Positions 37,295-48,060 of a DNA stretch of 64,000 bases are shown here, piece by piece (positions within the stretch are counted from its first letter, which is position 1; every line of letters begins with the position of its first letter). This DNA is from Candidatus Obscuribacteraceae bacterium (GTDB lineage Bacteria; Cyanobacteriota; Vampirovibrionia; Obscuribacterales; Obscuribacteraceae): contig JBGAHS010000002.1 of the NCBI GenBank assembly GCA_044226015.1, forward strand, positions 625,571 to 689,570, given 5' to 3'. The translations under genes were made by a program, and so were the position numbers. The notes under the pieces are model-generated. The model saw only the letters and a list, made by a program, of their open reading frames with translations. It had not been told where the DNA came from and did not search any database.

Positions 37295-37397
37295 CGTACC
37301 CAGGAATTGTTAGATTGAGCATATTATGAGAGATTGACAACCTTCTTTCTTATGTAAGGATAGCTTGGTTGGGGTAAATAATTTGCAGGAGCTAAAA

Positions 37398-38678
37398 ATG
37401 AAAAAAGCAGTTCTAAGCAAATTGGTGCCCGCGCAAACGCTTGCGCTACTTAGCTTTCTCGCATATGCTGTTCCTGCGGAAAGCCAGGAAATGCAGTATT
37501 CTGGCGGGTCCGACGAATTTGCGCAGCTCAACAATGTGCTCAACAACGCAGATGCCGGTCGCAGCTGGAGCGCGCCGCAGGGCAACATGGGCGGCGGCGG
37601 CATGAACGGCTCCCAGATGGGCAACATGGGCGGCGGCATGAACGGCTCCCAGATGGGCAACATGGGCGGCGGCATGAACGGCTCCCCAATGGGCAACATG
37701 GGTGGCGGCATGAACGGCCCCCAGATGGGCAACATGGGCGGCGGCATGAATGGCTACATGGGCGGCGGCATGATGAACGGTTCCCAGATGGGCAACATGG
37801 GTGGCGGCATGATGAACGGCTCCCAGATGGGCAACATGGGCGGCGGCATGATGAATGGCTCCCAGATGGGCAACATGGGTGGCGGCATGATGAACGGCTC
37901 CCAGATGGGCAACATGGGTGGCGGCATGATGAATGGCTCCCAGATGGGCAACATGGGTGGCGGCATGATGAACGGCTCCCAGATGGGCAACATGGGTGGC
38001 GGCATGATGAACGGTTCCCCAATGGGAAATGGTTTCACGCCAGGACCCCAAACTGGCAATATGGGCGGCATGATGGGCGCACCTCAAATGGGCGGCATGA
38101 TGGGCGCACCCGCCATGAACAATAGCCCTTTCGGCAACCTTGCAAAGCTGATGGGTGGACAGCCCAACCCTCTAACCGGAAATGTGCAATCCACCGGAAA
38201 CAAAGGCATCGGAAGCATGCTTCAACAGTTCATGCAAGGTAATGCCAACTCGCCTGGTACTGCAGTTGGTGCCAGCAATCCGTTCAACCGAATGAACCTT
38301 TTAAAGACTTTTTTCGGCGGGGCTCCAGGCACCGCAGGCAGTGGCAGCAGCAGCGGCAACTCCGCTGAACAGCAAGCAAAGAACGCGAGCGTTACTGGTC
38401 AGGCTGAGGCATTATTCCAGAGGGCGACGAATCAAGCAGCGCAAGCCGTTTCTGATGCAGAACGTGCCAGCAAAGGGTATGGCGATAAGGGCTCGCGCCT
38501 GGCCGCGGCATCCAGCGCACAATACCACGCAAATGATGCACGAGCGGCCGCCGACGAAGCTGGAAATATAACCTATAGCGGTCCTCAGTACGCACAAGAT
38601 TACGCAGCACAAGCCCGTGCACAGGCAAATCGGGCGCAGGAAGCTGCAGACCGTGCCGCTTACAATGCTGCACAATAG
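37398..38678 (+). CDS. Exported Gly/Met/Asn-rich repeat protein with C-terminal Ala-rich helical domain
   Basis: AGGAG RBS; signal peptide; about 12 GNMGGGM(M)NGSQM repeats; Ala/Gln-rich coiled C-terminus. Confidence 0.8.
   Translation: MKKAVLSKLVPAQTLALLSFLAYAVPAESQEMQYSGGSDEFAQLNNVLNNADAGRSWSAPQGNMGGGGMNGSQMGNMGGGMNGSQMGNMGGGMNGSPMGNMGGGMNGPQMGNMGGGMNGYMGGGMMNGSQMGNMGGGMMNGSQMGNMGGGMMNGSQMGNMGGGMMNGSQMGNMGGGMMNGSQMGNMGGGMMNGSQMGNMGGGMMNGSPMGNGFTPGPQTGNMGGMMGAPQMGGMMGAPAMNNSPFGNLAKLMGGQPNPLTGNVQSTGNKGIGSMLQQFMQGNANSPGTAVGASNPFNRMNLLKTFFGGAPGTAGSGSSSGNSAEQQAKNASVTGQAEALFQRATNQAAQAVSDAERASKGYGDKGSRLAAASSAQYHANDARAAADEAGNITYSGPQYAQDYAAQARAQANRAQEAADRAAYNAAQ
37581..38029 (+). repeat. Coding tandem repeat with 36- and 39-bp units
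   Basis: Six 39-bp units at 37791-38024, preceded by mostly 36-bp variants. Confidence 0.95.
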
Positions 38679-39733: not shown

Positions 39734-40450
39734 CTATTTCTTTTGATAGATTCGCTCAACGGCAGAGATAGCCTGATCAAGCAAGTTTTCCTTGTTATTC
39801 ATGATCGCGTTGTAGCGATCTTTAGCGGAGCTGCGTCCCCAGAGCTTGCAGTTATCGGCAAAGACTTTATCCGCTTCCGTGCCAGGGTACTTCAAATCCT
39901 TCATTATATGTGAACTGGTTTCAGGATCGAGCGGGTACACACGCCCGTTGCTTGCCTTCTCCCAGACGAGATGACCTTTTTGCGCTTCAATATCGACCTT
40001 GTCTTGCTGTTTGACCTTGGCATCGTAGAGTTCTTTGGCGGGGTTGAACATTACGTTGTGGAGGTTTCTCAGGCGCGAGGTTTCGTATTCATTTACTTGA
40101 ACATTCTTTCCATTCACATCAAAAACTTCATCCTTCAGTCCGCCCATTTCTCCGAACTTGTTCTGCGGGCTTACGGAGATGTGCTTCACATGGCCGGCGT
40201 CCTTGCCTTTGCCCATATCAAATTCAATGTGAGGAAGGCTTGAATTGAACACCTTTCCACTTTCAGATTTGGAAGCGTGATCGCCAGCGGCTTTTAGCCC
40301 TTGCAGTACAGTCTTCAATTCTGATGGATGCTGGGTGGCGATTTGCTGCAACTCGTCTTGAAACTTGTGCTGTCCTTCATGAGCCTGGTCGCTCTTAAAA
40401 GCGTTCTTCAGGTCTTGCACTTCGGTCTTTATATAGTTTCTGTCTTGCAT
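39734..40450 (-). CDS. Hypothetical protein
   Basis: Long ORF; start placed at ATG 40450 after GAGGGCGAGGA. Confidence 0.7.
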   Translation of the reverse strand: MQDRNYIKTEVQDLKNAFKSDQAHEGQHKFQDELQQIATQHPSELKTVLQGLKAAGDHASKSESGKVFNSSLPHIEFDMGKGKDAGHVKHISVSPQNKFGEMGGLKDEVFDVNGKNVQVNEYETSRLRNLHNVMFNPAKELYDAKVKQQDKVDIEAQKGHLVWEKASNGRVYPLDPETSSHIMKDLKYPGTEADKVFADNCKLWGRSSAKDRYNAIMNNKENLLDQAISAVERIYQKK

Positions 40451-40607
40451 TTCCTCGCCCTCACTCATTCCCAATGCGTTCCCAATGCGTTCATATTAGT
40501 CAGCAAATCTGAAAAAGATCTGAGAGTTTTTGACCTTGAGATATTGGGTTACGAAAATGTCAGGTGCATTGAATAAAGTTCATAAATCCGCGACTGAGGG
40601 CAGAGCA

Positions 40608-42284
40608 ATGGGTTCCAACGACAGACTCGAATACTCCGAATCTCCTTCTGACTCTTCAAGAGCCGATAGCACTTACGACCCAGTTGCTCTTTACCAAGAA
40701 GGCATTAGTAGCGGATATTTCGGACCCAAAGTAGGCGGTTGAGGAGGCGGCGTCTGCCCTCCAGGTGGAGGGAGCGACTACATAACTCCAGAGCAGTACC
40801 AACCAGTTTATCCAAGCGATTCGTCCCCACTACCCCCGATGAACATCTCGGGTGGAGTCATCAAACCCGAAGCAAACAAATGGGGCAGCAAATCTGAATA
40901 CATAAATGCGATCAACAAAGCTGGCTTTGACCATCAGTTGATTGATTCGGATAAAAACGAAGGCAAGCCTCAAGGCACATCTGAAGGTAAGCCAGAAGAG
41001 AATCAAGACAAACCAGAAGACAATTATAATTTCCACCAGGATGGAACATCAAAGGGCGACGCTGACCCATTCCAGTTCCACCAGGGCTCAAAAGACAAAC
41101 AAAATTCGAGCGACGGAAACAAGGGTGATTCATCCGAGAATCCAGATGGAAAAAAAGCCGAAAACTCTCCCGAAAAAGAATATCAAGACAAGTTAGCTTA
41201 CGCAGCCAAGAATGGCTTGCCAGTGGTCGTAGTCTTTGGCAATCAGGAAGCAAAAGACACGGAAAAAGCAGCGAACAACTTGCAGTCCAACATGCAATCC
41301 AAGGACGCTGTATACATTTACGCCGATACAAACAAAATTGATCCGAATTCTGACTTGGGCAAAGTCATCAGACGCAACGCGTCGAGCGGCGAAGGTCTCG
41401 GAGATTCAGGGAAGAGCGACATGAGCTTCACCGGTGTGTACACCGTTGAGAAGAAAGCTGATGGTTCACTCGGCATCGGCAAAACCATAGCAACTGTCCA
41501 TGGTGGCAGAGAAGAAATTTCTGCAATCGTGAAGGATCAACTGCAATACGCAAAACGCGGCACACTCAACCTTGGCGGAGGAGACCAGACTGCTCCACCA
41601 AATAACCCTGAGAACAAACCTAACGATCAAGACTTTCGTCCAAATCCGCAAGAGCCGAACCCAGACAAACAAAATAACCCTAACGACAACTCCAACAACA
41701 ATAACAACAACAGACCAGACGCTGATAAGAGCGATGGAAACGATCGTGAAACGTTCCAAAAACAACGTGACGAACGCTACAAACAGCGGCTCAAAGAACT
41801 TGAAGAAGTTGGTGGAAAGAAAGGATACAACCTCAAGCAATATGCACAGGGTTGGGGTCGCTTCCTTGAGCGTAATGAAGTTCCAGAAGGACCAGTGAAA
41901 GACGCTCTCAACGAATTCGGGCAGCAGATGCTGACCGGTGATTTCGATGGAAAGAAACTTGCAGAAATGATGGAAAAAGCTTCTGCAAGCAATCAACAGG
42001 CTTTGAATGAAGCTCTTCTTGCAGCCAATAAAGAACTCGGCAGCAGCGGATTGCGACTCAATGCAGACATCGACCCTGCAAGTGGCAAACTCAAGTCTAT
42101 TGAACTGACAGAGGCAGTTGCTTCAGGACAATCCAGAAACAGCTTGAGAATCAATAGTGATGGACAGTTCGTGTCTGGCACAGCAATGGACGTTCCAGGA
42201 GCGGCCCAGCAATTTAAGCCGATACCGATAGAAGAATTGTCCAGGCGACTGGCAAAGAAATCAGAACAAGCGGCGTGTCCGTGA
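40608..42284 (+). CDS. Candidate selenoprotein (558 aa if the TGA at 40740-40742 is recoded) with a Cys-less thioredoxin-like domain; otherwise a nonsense-disrupted gene
   Basis: GAGGG RBS and ATG 40608. The frame is continuous into ORF 40839-42284 except for one TGA (codon 45) in KVGG*GGGVCPP. YQDKLAYAAKNGLPVVVVFG resembles a thioredoxin-like N-terminus. Confidence 0.6.
40752..40778 (+). promoter_or_regulatory. Candidate bacterial SECIS element
   Basis: CCCUCC-AGGU-GGAGGG upper stem (40757-40772), GUC/GAC lower stem, unpaired U at 40755; loop starts 20 nt after the UGA. Confidence 0.5.
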
Positions 42285-42458
42285 AACGGCTAACCGATTG
42301 AAACCGTGAGTTTCAAAAGAAAATTGAAAGAGTAGTCTAAACCCTGAACTTCGCAGAATGCGGTGGCGAGTCAGAGCGGATGAATCAGTGTGAAGATGAG
42401 TCAGAGCGTCGACGACGATACGCTGCTAAACCCGTCAGGGGCGACGAGCCAGAAAGGG

Positions 42459-43022
42459 TCAACTTAGCTCTGGCAGCTTTTTAACGAATCCAAGTTGATA
42501 CATCTCTTCAAGGTCATGATTGCTAGCCTTAGCACATGTACCAAGTACAAAATCTGCAAAAGGTATCACCACGTTAAAATTCTTACTTGGATATTTGTGA
42601 TGCAACCAGTGGTATCGCGCAAGATACTTGTAGATTGGCCAATTGCTGAAACCGCGATGCTCAGGTTTGTGCATTTCGAGGTGAATCTTATTCCAAATCC
42701 AATGGTGCATGGTTGCTACAAAGACAAAAATTAGAGCGCCAGGCCAAGAGAAAATCGCAATTACAAGTGCGAAAGGAATAGCCTTTATTGGAGCCTTTTG
42801 CACTGTTAGACGAATCTCCTTGTCCTCCCCAACGGGCACGGGTTCATCAGTAAAATGTTCAGAATAGTGTTCTTTATGGTGGACGATAGCATGAGCTTGA
42901 AATGTTCGCTCAAATCTTGCAAAACTACGTCTATGCATCAAACGGCTATGCACTTGATGTTCAATAAAGGACATTAGTATGCAAGAAAAAATAAACCAGC
43001 CAAATAGCTGCAATACAAACAC
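42459..43022 (-). CDS. Fatty acid hydroxylase/sterol desaturase family membrane protein
   Basis: His boxes HSRLMH, HAIVHH, HLEMH, HWLHH, then NFNV; GTG start at 43022 after GGAG. Confidence 0.8.
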   Translation of the reverse strand: MFVLQLFGWFIFSCILMSFIEHQVHSRLMHRRSFARFERTFQAHAIVHHKEHYSEHFTDEPVPVGEDKEIRLTVQKAPIKAIPFALVIAIFSWPGALIFVFVATMHHWIWNKIHLEMHKPEHRGFSNWPIYKYLARYHWLHHKYPSKNFNVVIPFADFVLGTCAKASNHDLEEMYQLGFVKKLPELS

Positions 43023-43643
43023 AGTAGACTCCAGTAAGTACGGGATTAGGCTGGTTAGTTTCCGAAATCCTATCCTCATCAAAAGAAAAGATGTAAGAGT
43101 AGAGAAACTACATGCTGCATGGGTCACGCAGCTGGGTTAACTATAATCGTCACCGCGTTTTGTGAACGCTTTTCTCATGGGATAAGCAGCACTCAACCAT
43201 AAAAGAACTCAAGAAAATCCCCCGCACCTGATCGAAGCATAGCCGAAGAACGATCTCTTGCGGGTTAACTTATTACTAGCAACACATAGCGTTACTTATC
43301 ACAAAGCGATCACCTGGTGTGAACCTAATTTTTATCAACCCGAAAAGTCACAAAAGCTCTACCGTCCGCCGAAGAGTCAGCCACACAGGAGATCTAACTG
43401 TCCACACAGGATCAAGCCATCCTATCAGATGCTGGTTGGAAGCCCGGCGCTCCCAGACGAGAAGCCCACTCAGGATCTACTCGAACCAGAAGAGATCACC
43501 ACTCAAATCTTTTTGGTTCCTGGCTGAACACTAAGAATCGAGCTGCCACCACTTAAGCTCTACCACCCGCCACAACACATGATCAAACTGCTGATTCGAT
43601 CCAACCGGCAGCGCAAAAGACGTCTAGTATGCGAACCCGCGAT

Positions 43644-44846
43644 TTATACGACTTGCCCCGCAGAGAATCCCGAAGCCCATGCCCACTGGAAGTTGTAGCC
43701 TCCCAATTGACCAGTGACATCAACAACCTCGCCGACAAAATACAGACCTGGCACTTTTTTTGATTCCATTGTCTTTGCGGACAGCTCGTCAGTACTGACA
43801 CCGCCTCTGGTGACTTCAGCTTTCTGGTAACCGAAGTTTGCAGCAGGCACTAGTGACCACGCATGCAGTTTTCTACAAAAATCATCAAGCGTTTTGTCAG
43901 CGAGTGAATTGATTGGCCGCGAAGATTGAAATAGTTCGCAAAGCTTATCTGCAAGCCTCGCTGGCAACAACTCCTGCAATGCGTTTCGCAATTCCTTCTT
44001 GCTCTTTTGCGCCTGTAGTTCAGCCAGGAAAGCTCGCACATCAACATCTGGGCATGTGTCGATTTGAAGTGCATCGCCTGGATGCCAATAAAGAGAAGCC
44101 TGCAAAATGGCTGGTCCGCTCACGCCTGTATGAGTGAACAGCGTGTTTTCTCTAAAACTATGTTTTCGACATTTCACGGTGCTATCGAAAGATACTCCGG
44201 TTAGCTCGCCAAAGCTCTGCTTGTCTTGCGGCTTCAAATCGAAGCCAACAAGGGCAGGGTAGGTATCTTCCAACTTCAATCCGAATTGCTTTGCAATCTC
44301 GTAACCAAAACCGGTGGCTCCAATTTTCGGAATTGACAAGCCACCGGTTGCCACCACTACAGAATAAGTATGAATATCAGCATGCTCACACTGCACCACA
44401 AATCTACTTTCCTCATCAGCAGACTCTTGTCTTATTCTCTTCACCTTGGAACCAAGACGAAAACTTACTTTAGCCTTGCGACACTCCGTTACTAGCAGGT
44501 CAACAATTTGTTCTGCTGACTCATCACAGAATAACTGTCCAAGTTTCTTTTCGTGAAAGCGAATTTTGTGCGCTCGTACCAATGAAATGAAATCATTCGG
44601 TTGATATCGAGCCAGTGCTGATTTGCAAAAGTGAGGGTTAGCTGAATGATAATTTTCGGGCTTCGCGTGCAAGTTAGTAAAATTGCAACGTCCTCCACCA
44701 GAAATCAAAATCTTACGTCCGATCTTTTCCGAATGGTCAATGACAAGCACTCGCCGAAAGCGCTTCGCGGCTTCAATTGCACACATCATGCCTGCGCCAC
44801 CCGCGCCGATGACTACGACGTCTGTCTTAATAATTTCAGGTGACAC
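43644..44846 (-). CDS. HI0933/BaiN family NAD(P)/FAD-dependent oxidoreductase
   Basis: GAGGAG, KILISGGGRCNFTN, ATGGLSIP, FTHTGVSGP, GGYNFQWAWASG. Confidence 0.95.
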   Translation of the reverse strand: MSPEIIKTDVVVIGAGGAGMMCAIEAAKRFRRVLVIDHSEKIGRKILISGGGRCNFTNLHAKPENYHSANPHFCKSALARYQPNDFISLVRAHKIRFHEKKLGQLFCDESAEQIVDLLVTECRKAKVSFRLGSKVKRIRQESADEESRFVVQCEHADIHTYSVVVATGGLSIPKIGATGFGYEIAKQFGLKLEDTYPALVGFDLKPQDKQSFGELTGVSFDSTVKCRKHSFRENTLFTHTGVSGPAILQASLYWHPGDALQIDTCPDVDVRAFLAELQAQKSKKELRNALQELLPARLADKLCELFQSSRPINSLADKTLDDFCRKLHAWSLVPAANFGYQKAEVTRGGVSTDELSAKTMESKKVPGLYFVGEVVDVTGQLGGYNFQWAWASGFSAGQVV

Positions 44847-47306: not shown

Positions 47307-47637
47307 TTGGATTTACGCTCAATCAGTGGCAGACAACTGGCTCGCAAGAATGACACCTGCATTCGGTATTTTCACAGAGGCATTTGCATAAACGCAAGTC
47401 AGCCTTAGGCATTCGGAGCTGTACGCATGATTTCGAAAAAAATTCGATTTGCGGACCTTAGACAGACCAAGCCGAAATCTGCAGGCGGATTTTGTTGCGA
47501 TATTGGATTGGATGACGATTGTAAATCTTGGGCTGAATCGATACAAAGCTCAAAGCAAGCCGCTCCGGCTCTTAAATCCTGGGCTGATGACTGCTTGAAA
47601 GCCAGTGTTTTCCCAGGAGCGAAGCGGGTCACCTGTC

Positions 47638-47988
47638 GAGTTCAGGGGAATATCTACGCACCATCGTCGCAGATAAACCTGAAAACTCCACCGGTACCGT
47701 TTGAGTTCTCGAAAATATCTTCGCACCCTCAGCCGCAGATAAACCTGAAAACTCCACCGGTACCGTTTGAGTTCTCAAAAATATCTTCGCACCCTCAGCC
47801 GCAGAAAATCCTGAAAACTCCGCCGGTACCGTTTGAGTTCTCGAAAATATCTTCGCACCCTCAGCCGCAGATAAACCTGAAAACTCCACCGGTACCGTTT
47901 GAGTTCTCAAAAATATCTTCGCACCCTCAGCCGCAGATAAACCTGAAAACTCCACCGGTACCGATTGAGTTCTCGAAAATATCTTCGC
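47638..47988. repeat. 66-bp palindromic tandem array (about 5 copies)
   Basis: Unit GCAGATAAACCTGAAAACTCCACCGGTACCGTTTGAGTTCTCGAAAATATCTTCGCACCCTCAGCC starts at 47669, 47735, 47801, 47867 and 47933 (last is partial); a degenerate partial unit starts at 47638. Confidence 0.95.
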
Positions 47989-48060
47989 TTCAATGGTCGA
48001 CAACAAAAGCAAAGGCGCCGCAAACCTAATCGCGACGCCAAATTTCAGAATTCGTTATTC

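Follow-up and report, generated by a model that had tools for sequence, protein, structure and literature searches.

The window analysed here, a stretch of 64,000 nucleotides from a Candidatus Obscuribacteraceae bacterium, carries on its forward strand a frame that stays open from an ATG at 40608 to 42284 save for one internal TGA at codon 45 (40740–42), in the context ...YFGPKVGG-U-GGGVCPPGGG.... This frame is common to two open reading frames, one ending at 40742 and the other starting at 40839. The preliminary description of the locus had pointed out the shared frame, its single TGA and a ribosome-binding site before the ATG; on re-reading the sequence we recovered all three, the last of them as GAGGG at 40596–40600. 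It had, however, let the frame end at 42284. The TGA at 42282–84 is followed by AAC GGC TAA, i.e. Asn-Gly and then a TAA at 42291–93, and is probably not the true end of the gene. In-frame starts further upstream (a TTG at 40530 and an ATG between 40530 and 40608) are possible; in orthologs the distance from start to UGA is comparable to that in the window gene. A helix is conserved before the first UGA, L28 being retained in at least 90% of the 20 homologs aligned, which suggests that the part upstream of this codon is translated. The features of the locus are the following:

40596–40600, + strand: GAGGG, a Shine-Dalgarno-like motif read from the sequence, 7 nt before the ATG at 40608
40608–42293, + strand: full gene of 561 amino acids with two UGA codons read as predicted selenocysteine (Sec), ending at the TAA 42291–93
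40680–40709, + strand: conserved helix before the first UGA (residues 25–34; L28 conservation and model helix H25-34)
40740–40757, + strand: predicted U45-G-G-G-V-C50 pair on a disordered arm (pLDDT <50); TGA in 22 internal-type homologs, Cys in L012, L030 and L035
40757–40772, + strand: predicted SECIS 1, CCCUCC-AGGU-GGAGGG, loop 20 nt after the UGA, within the coding sequence
41166–41564, + strand: thioredoxin-fold domain without cysteines (residues 187–319; Z 11.0, rmsd 2.5, 103 aligned to thioredoxin h)
41811–42281, + strand: second folded alpha/beta domain, lineage-specific (residues 402–558; model pLDDT 90.7)
42276–42293, + strand: C557-P558-U559-N-G-stop, second predicted Sec site; TGA present in all 17 C-P genes
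42298–42316, + strand: predicted SECIS 2, UUGAAAC-CGUGA-GUUUCAA, loop 20 nt after the UGA, entirely 3' untranslated

This gene is the only one with a hairpin after both TGAs among the 399 open reading frames of this genome that have at least 300 amino acids and are bounded by TGA at both ends. Databases carry a truncated form, which begins after U45 and finishes at A-C-P, and a public record of 84% identity that also ends at A-C-P is labelled 'hypothetical protein, partial'. Gene callers, in effect, remove both presumed redox ends of the protein. Two DNA sequencing runs match the stretch without differences; as both may be the assembly's own source, they were not counted. The same search of sequencing runs returned no RNA run for this stretch, and Rfam gave four matches over 40400–42500, all far below the gathering scores. 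When ortholog loci were compared across genera, no conserved neighbouring genes emerged. Neither the fatty-acid-hydroxylase-like gene (42459–43127, − strand, below cut-off) nor the gene for an HI0933-like flavoprotein (43644–44846, − strand) is conserved beside orthologs. Elsewhere in the window, we noticed a Gly/Met/Asn-rich repeat protein (37365–38678, + strand) and an open reading frame with about five copies of a 20-amino-acid unit (47427–48029, + strand).

Selenocysteine machinery and distribution of the family

The Sec machinery presupposed by the preliminary description is present in the host genome, which is 92% complete. selA (505.7 bits), selB (329.3), selD (366.7) and a tRNA-Sec with the anticodon UCA (64.7) all score above the curated cut-offs; the host SelD is of the Cys type. 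Of the 104 family genomes, 83 yielded selA and 86 selB. In one of them (G005, 70% complete), the UGA gene is present and neither selA nor selB was found. SelB of a genome of genus g35 (G065, locus L163) has long insertions, one of them inside the C-terminal SECIS-binding region. The host genome also holds an array of 18 tRNA genes (G000:C10:356333-358584).

Two recognisable selenoprotein genes of the host genome served as positive controls. A SelW/Rdx gene (L171, G000:C1:284037, − strand; Pfam E 6.6e-20) encodes C-G-A-U (CxxU) and has a 7-bp hairpin with an AGGUU loop 21 nt after the UGA. A thioredoxin gene (L172, G000:C8:209217, + strand; E 5.3e-17) encodes W-U-G-P-C, with a hairpin seen by eye at 18 nt; its product has a weak TPR-like N-terminus.

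A scan of 185,579 species genomes gave 106 candidates, from which 15 relatives were confirmed: 13 from Obscuribacterales, Obscuribacter(aceae) or Melainabacteria, one from a 'Cyanobacteria bacterium' and one from a 'bacterium'. Of 96 further genomes from the host's family, 60 contain the first domain, compared with none of 204 genomes from ten other families of the class. Within the genomes searched, the family was found only in Obscuribacterales-type genomes.

The first UGA and SECIS 1

Loci were fetched for most homology matches and yielded 77 distinct domain rows, of which 22 have an internal UGA, 27 an M-x-UGA start and 18 a TGA-free, Cys-bearing start; the other 10 are unclassified because their 5' end is missing, they are a second copy of the domain or their N-terminus is of a different kind. 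In 49 of the 77 rows a Cys comes after an upstream in-frame TGA, in a scan that split frames at TAA and TAG and to which N-terminal TAA or TAG cases would stay invisible. The residues flanking the UGAs on both sides are conserved, while their codons change synonymously. What is kept as a motif is U-x4-C, whose spacing varies across the family, and not the U-x-x-G-V-C proposed earlier. In a tree of 74 domain rows, Cys takes the place of UGA in three separate branches. The first (L012, L030 and L035, with C-P-G-G-V-C) is nested among the orthologs of the window gene; L081 has C-A-N-N-R-C beside U-G-G-E-V-C, and L017 has C-R-G-S-S-C beside U-G-P-R-P-C. No hairpin was found in any of these branches, SECIS 1 being absent in 3/3 of the Cys orthologs. 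Since the TGA is kept across many species, it is no assembly error.

Hairpins were scored with a strict rule that is matched by chance at 2,284 of the 325,903 TGAs in this genome (0.70%); a first, loose rule, which matched 6% of TGAs, was uninformative and was dropped. A strict hairpin lies at 20–23 nt in 18 of the 22 internal-type genes, compared with the 5.3 that synonymous shuffles predict at any distance up to 200 nt, and four genes fail the rule. This count, like that of 17 of 17 for the second site (see below), is partly circular, because the rule was drawn from these same genes. Of four new internal-type loci none passed the strict rule and two passed a looser one; L239 has a weak stem only, and L244 has no hairpin near the UGA. 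Changes on both sides were seen for 3/7 pairs of SECIS 1.

In the window gene itself, SECIS 1 is the minimum-energy upper stem, of modest stability: z ranges from −1.4 to −2.0 over three short stretches and is not significant over two 101-nt stretches. The hairpin is recreated in 33% of synonymous shuffles of the gene and overlaps the coding stretch for P-P-G-G-G. Its closing-pair probability is 0.98–0.99, which leaves the competing hairpin that had been raised as a caveat (GGAGG 40743–47 with CCUCC 40758–62) at 0.01 or less. The unpaired U and the GUC/GAC lower stem, earlier counted among the SECIS features, are not kept in orthologs. A paralog in the same genome (L022, G000:C3:17691, − strand) has G-U-G-P-R-P-C, a CGUGA hairpin at 20 nt and no C-terminal Sec site.

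We regard U45 as our most secure assignment: the TGA at 40740–42 is, on comparative grounds, very probably read as Sec. With the Sec genes present, TGA or Cys in homologs at codon 45, a covarying hairpin and a TGA conserved far beyond a single assembly, the central proposal of the preliminary description stands, including its placement of CCCUCC-AGGU-GGAGGG with the loop 20 nt after the UGA.

The second UGA and SECIS 2

With confidence only slightly lower, we propose that the seemingly terminal TGA at 42282–84 is also read as Sec (U559). TGA, never TAA or TAG, occupies all 17 C-terminal sites of this type. It is followed by N/H-G and then by TAA or TAG in 15 of the 17 genes, and the Cys and Pro codons before it vary synonymously. 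All 17 have a 6–7 bp hairpin that lies past the stop codon, its loop 19–22 nt downstream of the UGA. In the alignment of these hairpins 98.3% of cells are paired and 10 cells have changed on both sides, a level reached by 0 of 500 shuffles; slid controls are at most 57% paired. As SECIS 2 is non-coding, protein constraint cannot explain its covariation. Its folding energy in longer stretches is −7.3 to −7.9 kcal/mol, the limit of the published model being −7.5. Such a hairpin is absent after all 15 ordinary TGA stops in the family and follows 4 of 961 TGA stops genome-wide.

Two new loci repeat the C-terminal pattern, both with the hairpin. At two further loci, L134 and L135, domain 2 occurs without the thioredoxin domain and the end reads A-C-P-UGA-N-G-H; the strict rule failed there, and by eye a stem of 7 pairs carries a UGGAG loop 21 nt after the UGA. 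Shorter proteins that likewise have domain 2 without the thioredoxin domain (P0013–P0021) finish at C-P in their database forms. A Cys form at the position of U559 was not found in the window gene's family.

Independent support for a C-terminal Sec comes from an unrelated family of 732-amino-acid proteins. Here 7 of 30 loci end in C-C-P-TGA-TAA with a hairpin at 18–19 nt (six by the strict rule, one by a looser one), and the other 23 end in P-C, none with a hairpin. The host member (L173, G000:C7:207639-209840, + strand; homologs L175–L204) is a 732-amino-acid open reading frame ending in W-C-C-P-TGA-TAA, with a hairpin at 19 nt and no Pfam match. It probably represents a second new selenoprotein family, in which Sec would be the final residue.

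Protein architecture

An AlphaFold2 model was built with U read as C. It contains disordered stretches at residues 39–73, 110–185 and 325–374, and the pLDDT below 50 for residues 39–73 agrees with the flexible N-terminal arm of the preliminary description, which had recognised the first UGA and missed both the C-terminal Sec site and the thioredoxin fold. The thioredoxin fold covers residues 187–317 of the model. This domain matches the CxxC domains of paralogs in a profile comparison (98%), and 19 of the 57 members match Thioredoxin_7 at E ≤0.1. For domain 2, the best structural match among 48,161 chains has Z 3.8. Foldseek gave no match at E ≤0.001, which does not make the fold new, and the sequence has 46 matches in 1.84 billion representatives. 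PDB sequence searches with the profile of either domain returned nothing convincing (best E 0.0091 and 0.46). The whole protein has two weak Pfam matches only and matches no NCBIfam family.

U45, C50, C557 and U559 are the only Cys or Sec residues, with none between 51 and 556. The protein is acidic and has no hydrophobic stretch (highest 19-residue hydropathy 0.58), and the model leaves both arms undocked (pTM 0.37). A downstream CxxC domain is present in 33 of the 77 rows. In the Cys orthologs L012, L030 and L035, a WCGPC thioredoxin takes the position of domain 2 and the C-P-U tail. In many paralogs (L062–L077, L245–L270) the C-terminus is a short arginine-rich tail and no signal peptide is apparent by eye; that these tails are a secretion signal is a guess.

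Paralogs with UGA at codon 3

In the M-x-UGA genes a ribosome-binding motif precedes the ATG in 26 of 27 cases, compared with 11 of 12 TGA-free paralogs, and in 23 of the 27 no later start, either before or just inside the domain, has such a motif. Therefore, codon 3 must be read through. None of the 27 has a hairpin at 19–23 nt; 26 have one 37–142 nt downstream (2.1 expected), and in the 27th it is present with a U-G closing pair. The distance exceeds 37 nt in 23 of the 26, and in six of seven new loci. TGA-free paralogs have no hairpin (0 of 18; 0.9 expected). A typical distal hairpin is GAUUCAC-AGGUU-GUGAAUC, and among 21 distinct hairpins six of seven pairs change on both sides, which 0 of 500 shuffles matched. 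A single copy of the exact consensus is present in each of 19 genomes out of 104, with none for the control. These matches fall at loci of this family; of five newly checked, four are M-G-TGA genes and one is cut by a contig end. Among 40 newly fetched loci nine genes start with M-x-TGA. Seven of these pass the unchanged rule at 37–58 nt, two being near-copies, and the remaining two have a weaker hairpin at 40 and 22 nt.

The codon-3 class is scattered over the tree, with at least five changes forced; as it probably had one origin, its occurrences are not independent events. The host genome has no codon-3 gene with both ribosome-binding motif and hairpin among 196 candidates. Consensus folding of the codon-3 genes aligned from the UGA gives no structure, because the distance of the hairpin varies. 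Compared with base shuffles, the spacer before the hairpin has no clear excess of structure (z +0.5 to −2.7), and a spacer stem that draws the distal hairpin near the UGA is no more than a possibility. No change in SelB tracks with the distal hairpin in 13 genomes compared by eye.

We consider it likely that Obscuribacterales decode the codon-3 UGA through a distance-free SECIS 22–142 nt downstream inside the open reading frame, while internal UGAs, such as the two of the window gene, keep 19–23 nt. This would be a naturally occurring bacterial SECIS of flexible position, in a new protein family with two Sec sites. Proline-rich repeats expanding between the UGA and the hairpin would lengthen the spacing, and a SelB complex tethered to the distal hairpin could, by looping out the spacer, reach a ribosome that is slow to start. 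In vitro, an AUG-UGA with an adjacent SECIS is lost to RF2 (40% to 6%), according to PMC4513850; this loss may account for the displaced hairpin, and it also shows that Sec insertion close to a start is difficult. The paralogs provide a natural series of 22–142 nt with one near-invariant hairpin, on which the spacing rule becomes testable. If the hairpin does work at a distance, SECIS-based gene prediction changes, Sec could be placed near an N-terminus without a coding hairpin beside the UGA, and there would be one possible reason why some bacterial selenoprotein genes have no canonical SECIS. An engineered distant SECIS reportedly worked in E. coli (Su, Li and Gladyshev, 2005).

Proposed function and alternative readings

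Our main reading, at a probability of roughly 0.88, is that the locus encodes a single 561-amino-acid protein with Sec at positions 45 and 559. On strong comparative support, SelB with Sec-tRNA would bind the 6–7 bp hairpin, with its G at the second loop position, about 20 nt after each UGA and insert Sec. Each Sec-Cys pair (U45/C50 and C557/U559) may then cycle between selenenylsulfide and selenol/thiol. The cysteine-free thioredoxin domain would serve as a platform for binding a client or partner between two redox arms, with the C-P-U tail replacing the CxxC thioredoxin domain that relatives carry there. As to the overall role, we lean slightly towards a thiol-disulfide redox relay or isomerase. 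This assignment rests on motifs and domain swaps, because the folded domains have no Cys, the arms are undocked and the neighbours are not conserved. Since recoding in E. coli runs at 30–40%, as measured in PMC4513850, both Sec residues may, by extrapolation, be present in only about 10–15% of chains.

Even with both UGAs read as Sec, the role of the pairs might be the binding of a soft metal or metalloid, or protein cross-linking, instead of catalysis of thiol-disulfide exchange. The Cys-rich disordered N-termini of TGA-free paralogs would suit such a role, as would a thioredoxin domain without CxxC and the CCPU or CCPC ends of the unrelated large-protein family. The closest Cys orthologs, however, exchange the C-P-U domain for a WCGPC thioredoxin, and the frequency of CxxC domains in the aligned rows also argues for redox chemistry, so that we hold this alternative as tentative. 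Much less probable is simple leakiness of the UGAs as stops, which a near-cognate tRNA for Trp, Cys or Arg would read with help from the hairpin and without Sec. Position 3 is Arg in 11 of 12 TGA-free paralogs that start with M-G/S, eight times as CGA or AGA, one base from TGA, and SECIS-independent read-through of 5–8% is given for E. coli in PMC4513850. Yet the loop type fits both the SECIS consensus and this genome's SelW gene, and where the motifs align TGA is replaced by Cys, not Trp. Read-through at U559, moreover, adds only three residues, which leaves little to select unless the residue is Sec.

The chance is marginally smaller still that the TGAs are true stops, whether from a sequencing error, a recent nonsense change, or a mini-ORF followed by a 481-amino-acid protein from the ATG at 40839. 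Databases carry exactly that truncated form, and the SECIS 1 hairpin alone is weak. The exclusive use of TGA at 17 of 17 C-terminal and 49 N-terminal sites (the latter from the scan blind to TAA and TAG) speaks against it, as do the conserved flanking residues with synonymous changes and, in the codon-3 genes, the ribosome-binding motifs and the scarcity of later starts. Finally, nothing but the in-frame TGAs themselves would suggest that TGA is read as an ordinary amino acid throughout the genome, and the counts reject this, leaving it practically no probability. TGA is a normal stop here and ends 961 of 3,452 long open reading frames; selA, selB and selD have no internal stop, nor do four molybdopterin and 12 AhpC matches, known selenoprotein types in which no internal TGA was found.

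Comparison with known systems

Literature searches, with most subscription journals outside their coverage, returned no description of this family or of a natural distal SECIS, and no selenoprotein paper on this sister group of cyanobacteria. None of the 119 prokaryotic selenoprotein families in Table 1 of PMC13188914 has the architecture or motifs of the window protein when compared by the descriptions in that table; together with the missing NCBIfam match, this is in line with the earlier remark that the protein is unlike recognised selenoprotein families. Canonical SECIS elements are reported for 87.4% of the 57,630 BSepDB entries in PMC13326102, and this database may list members of the window gene's family.

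Like bacterial SelB/SECIS genes of the E. coli fdhF type, the gene combines an in-frame UGA with a complete selABCD set. It differs from them in having two sites at opposite ends of one gene and no conserved bulged U or lower stem. The small hairpin, with a G in the first two loop positions and the loop at 19–23 nt, conforms to the SECIS consensus as outlined in PMC13188914. That source places SECIS elements immediately downstream of the UGA, with the loop at 16–37 nt for most elements, although some genes fail the model; the codon-3 paralogs depart from it with loops up to 142 nt away. No natural distal bacterial SECIS is described in the passages compared from PMC4513850, PMC8659212, PMC10778597 and PMC2792357.

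With thioredoxin-fold selenoproteins (Trx UxxC, Trx7/PDZ NF041199, TsoB NF045694) the window protein shares the fold and a Sec paired with a nearby Cys. Paralogs match NF041199 and NF045694 weakly, below cut-off. The predicted Sec residues, however, lie outside the active site of the fold, the domain has no Cys, and neither CxxC nor UxxC was found at the start of its active-site helix. The preliminary description had likened the Gly adjoining the UGA to HesB-like selenoproteins (TIGR01911). This likeness does not extend further: no HesB match was found in Pfam or NCBIfam, fold and size differ, and the motif is listed as UxGP in PMC13188914.

The second site is reminiscent of mammalian thioredoxin reductase. 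That enzyme has a C-terminal Gly-Cys-Sec-Gly arm. In both proteins the C-terminal tail would hold Cys and Sec and end in Gly, and the hairpin for the near-terminal UGA of the window gene likewise lies in the 3' untranslated region. Unlike the reductase, the window protein has C-P-U-N-G instead of adjacent C-U, no flavin domain, and an additional N-terminal Sec arm. Protein disulfide isomerase, whose architecture includes inactive thioredoxin domains, resembles the family in its Cys-free thioredoxin domain, which in many paralogs is joined with a CxxC thioredoxin domain; the window protein differs from it in having long disordered linkers and neither a CxxC domain nor a hydrophobic signal stretch.

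The gene thus adds a lineage-specific selenoprotein family with predicted Sec at both ends from the sister group of cyanobacteria. On sequence comparison, it is a new predicted family among bacterial SECIS-type selenoproteins, and its novelty lies in a Sec arm at each terminus and in the distal hairpin that its paralogs carry.
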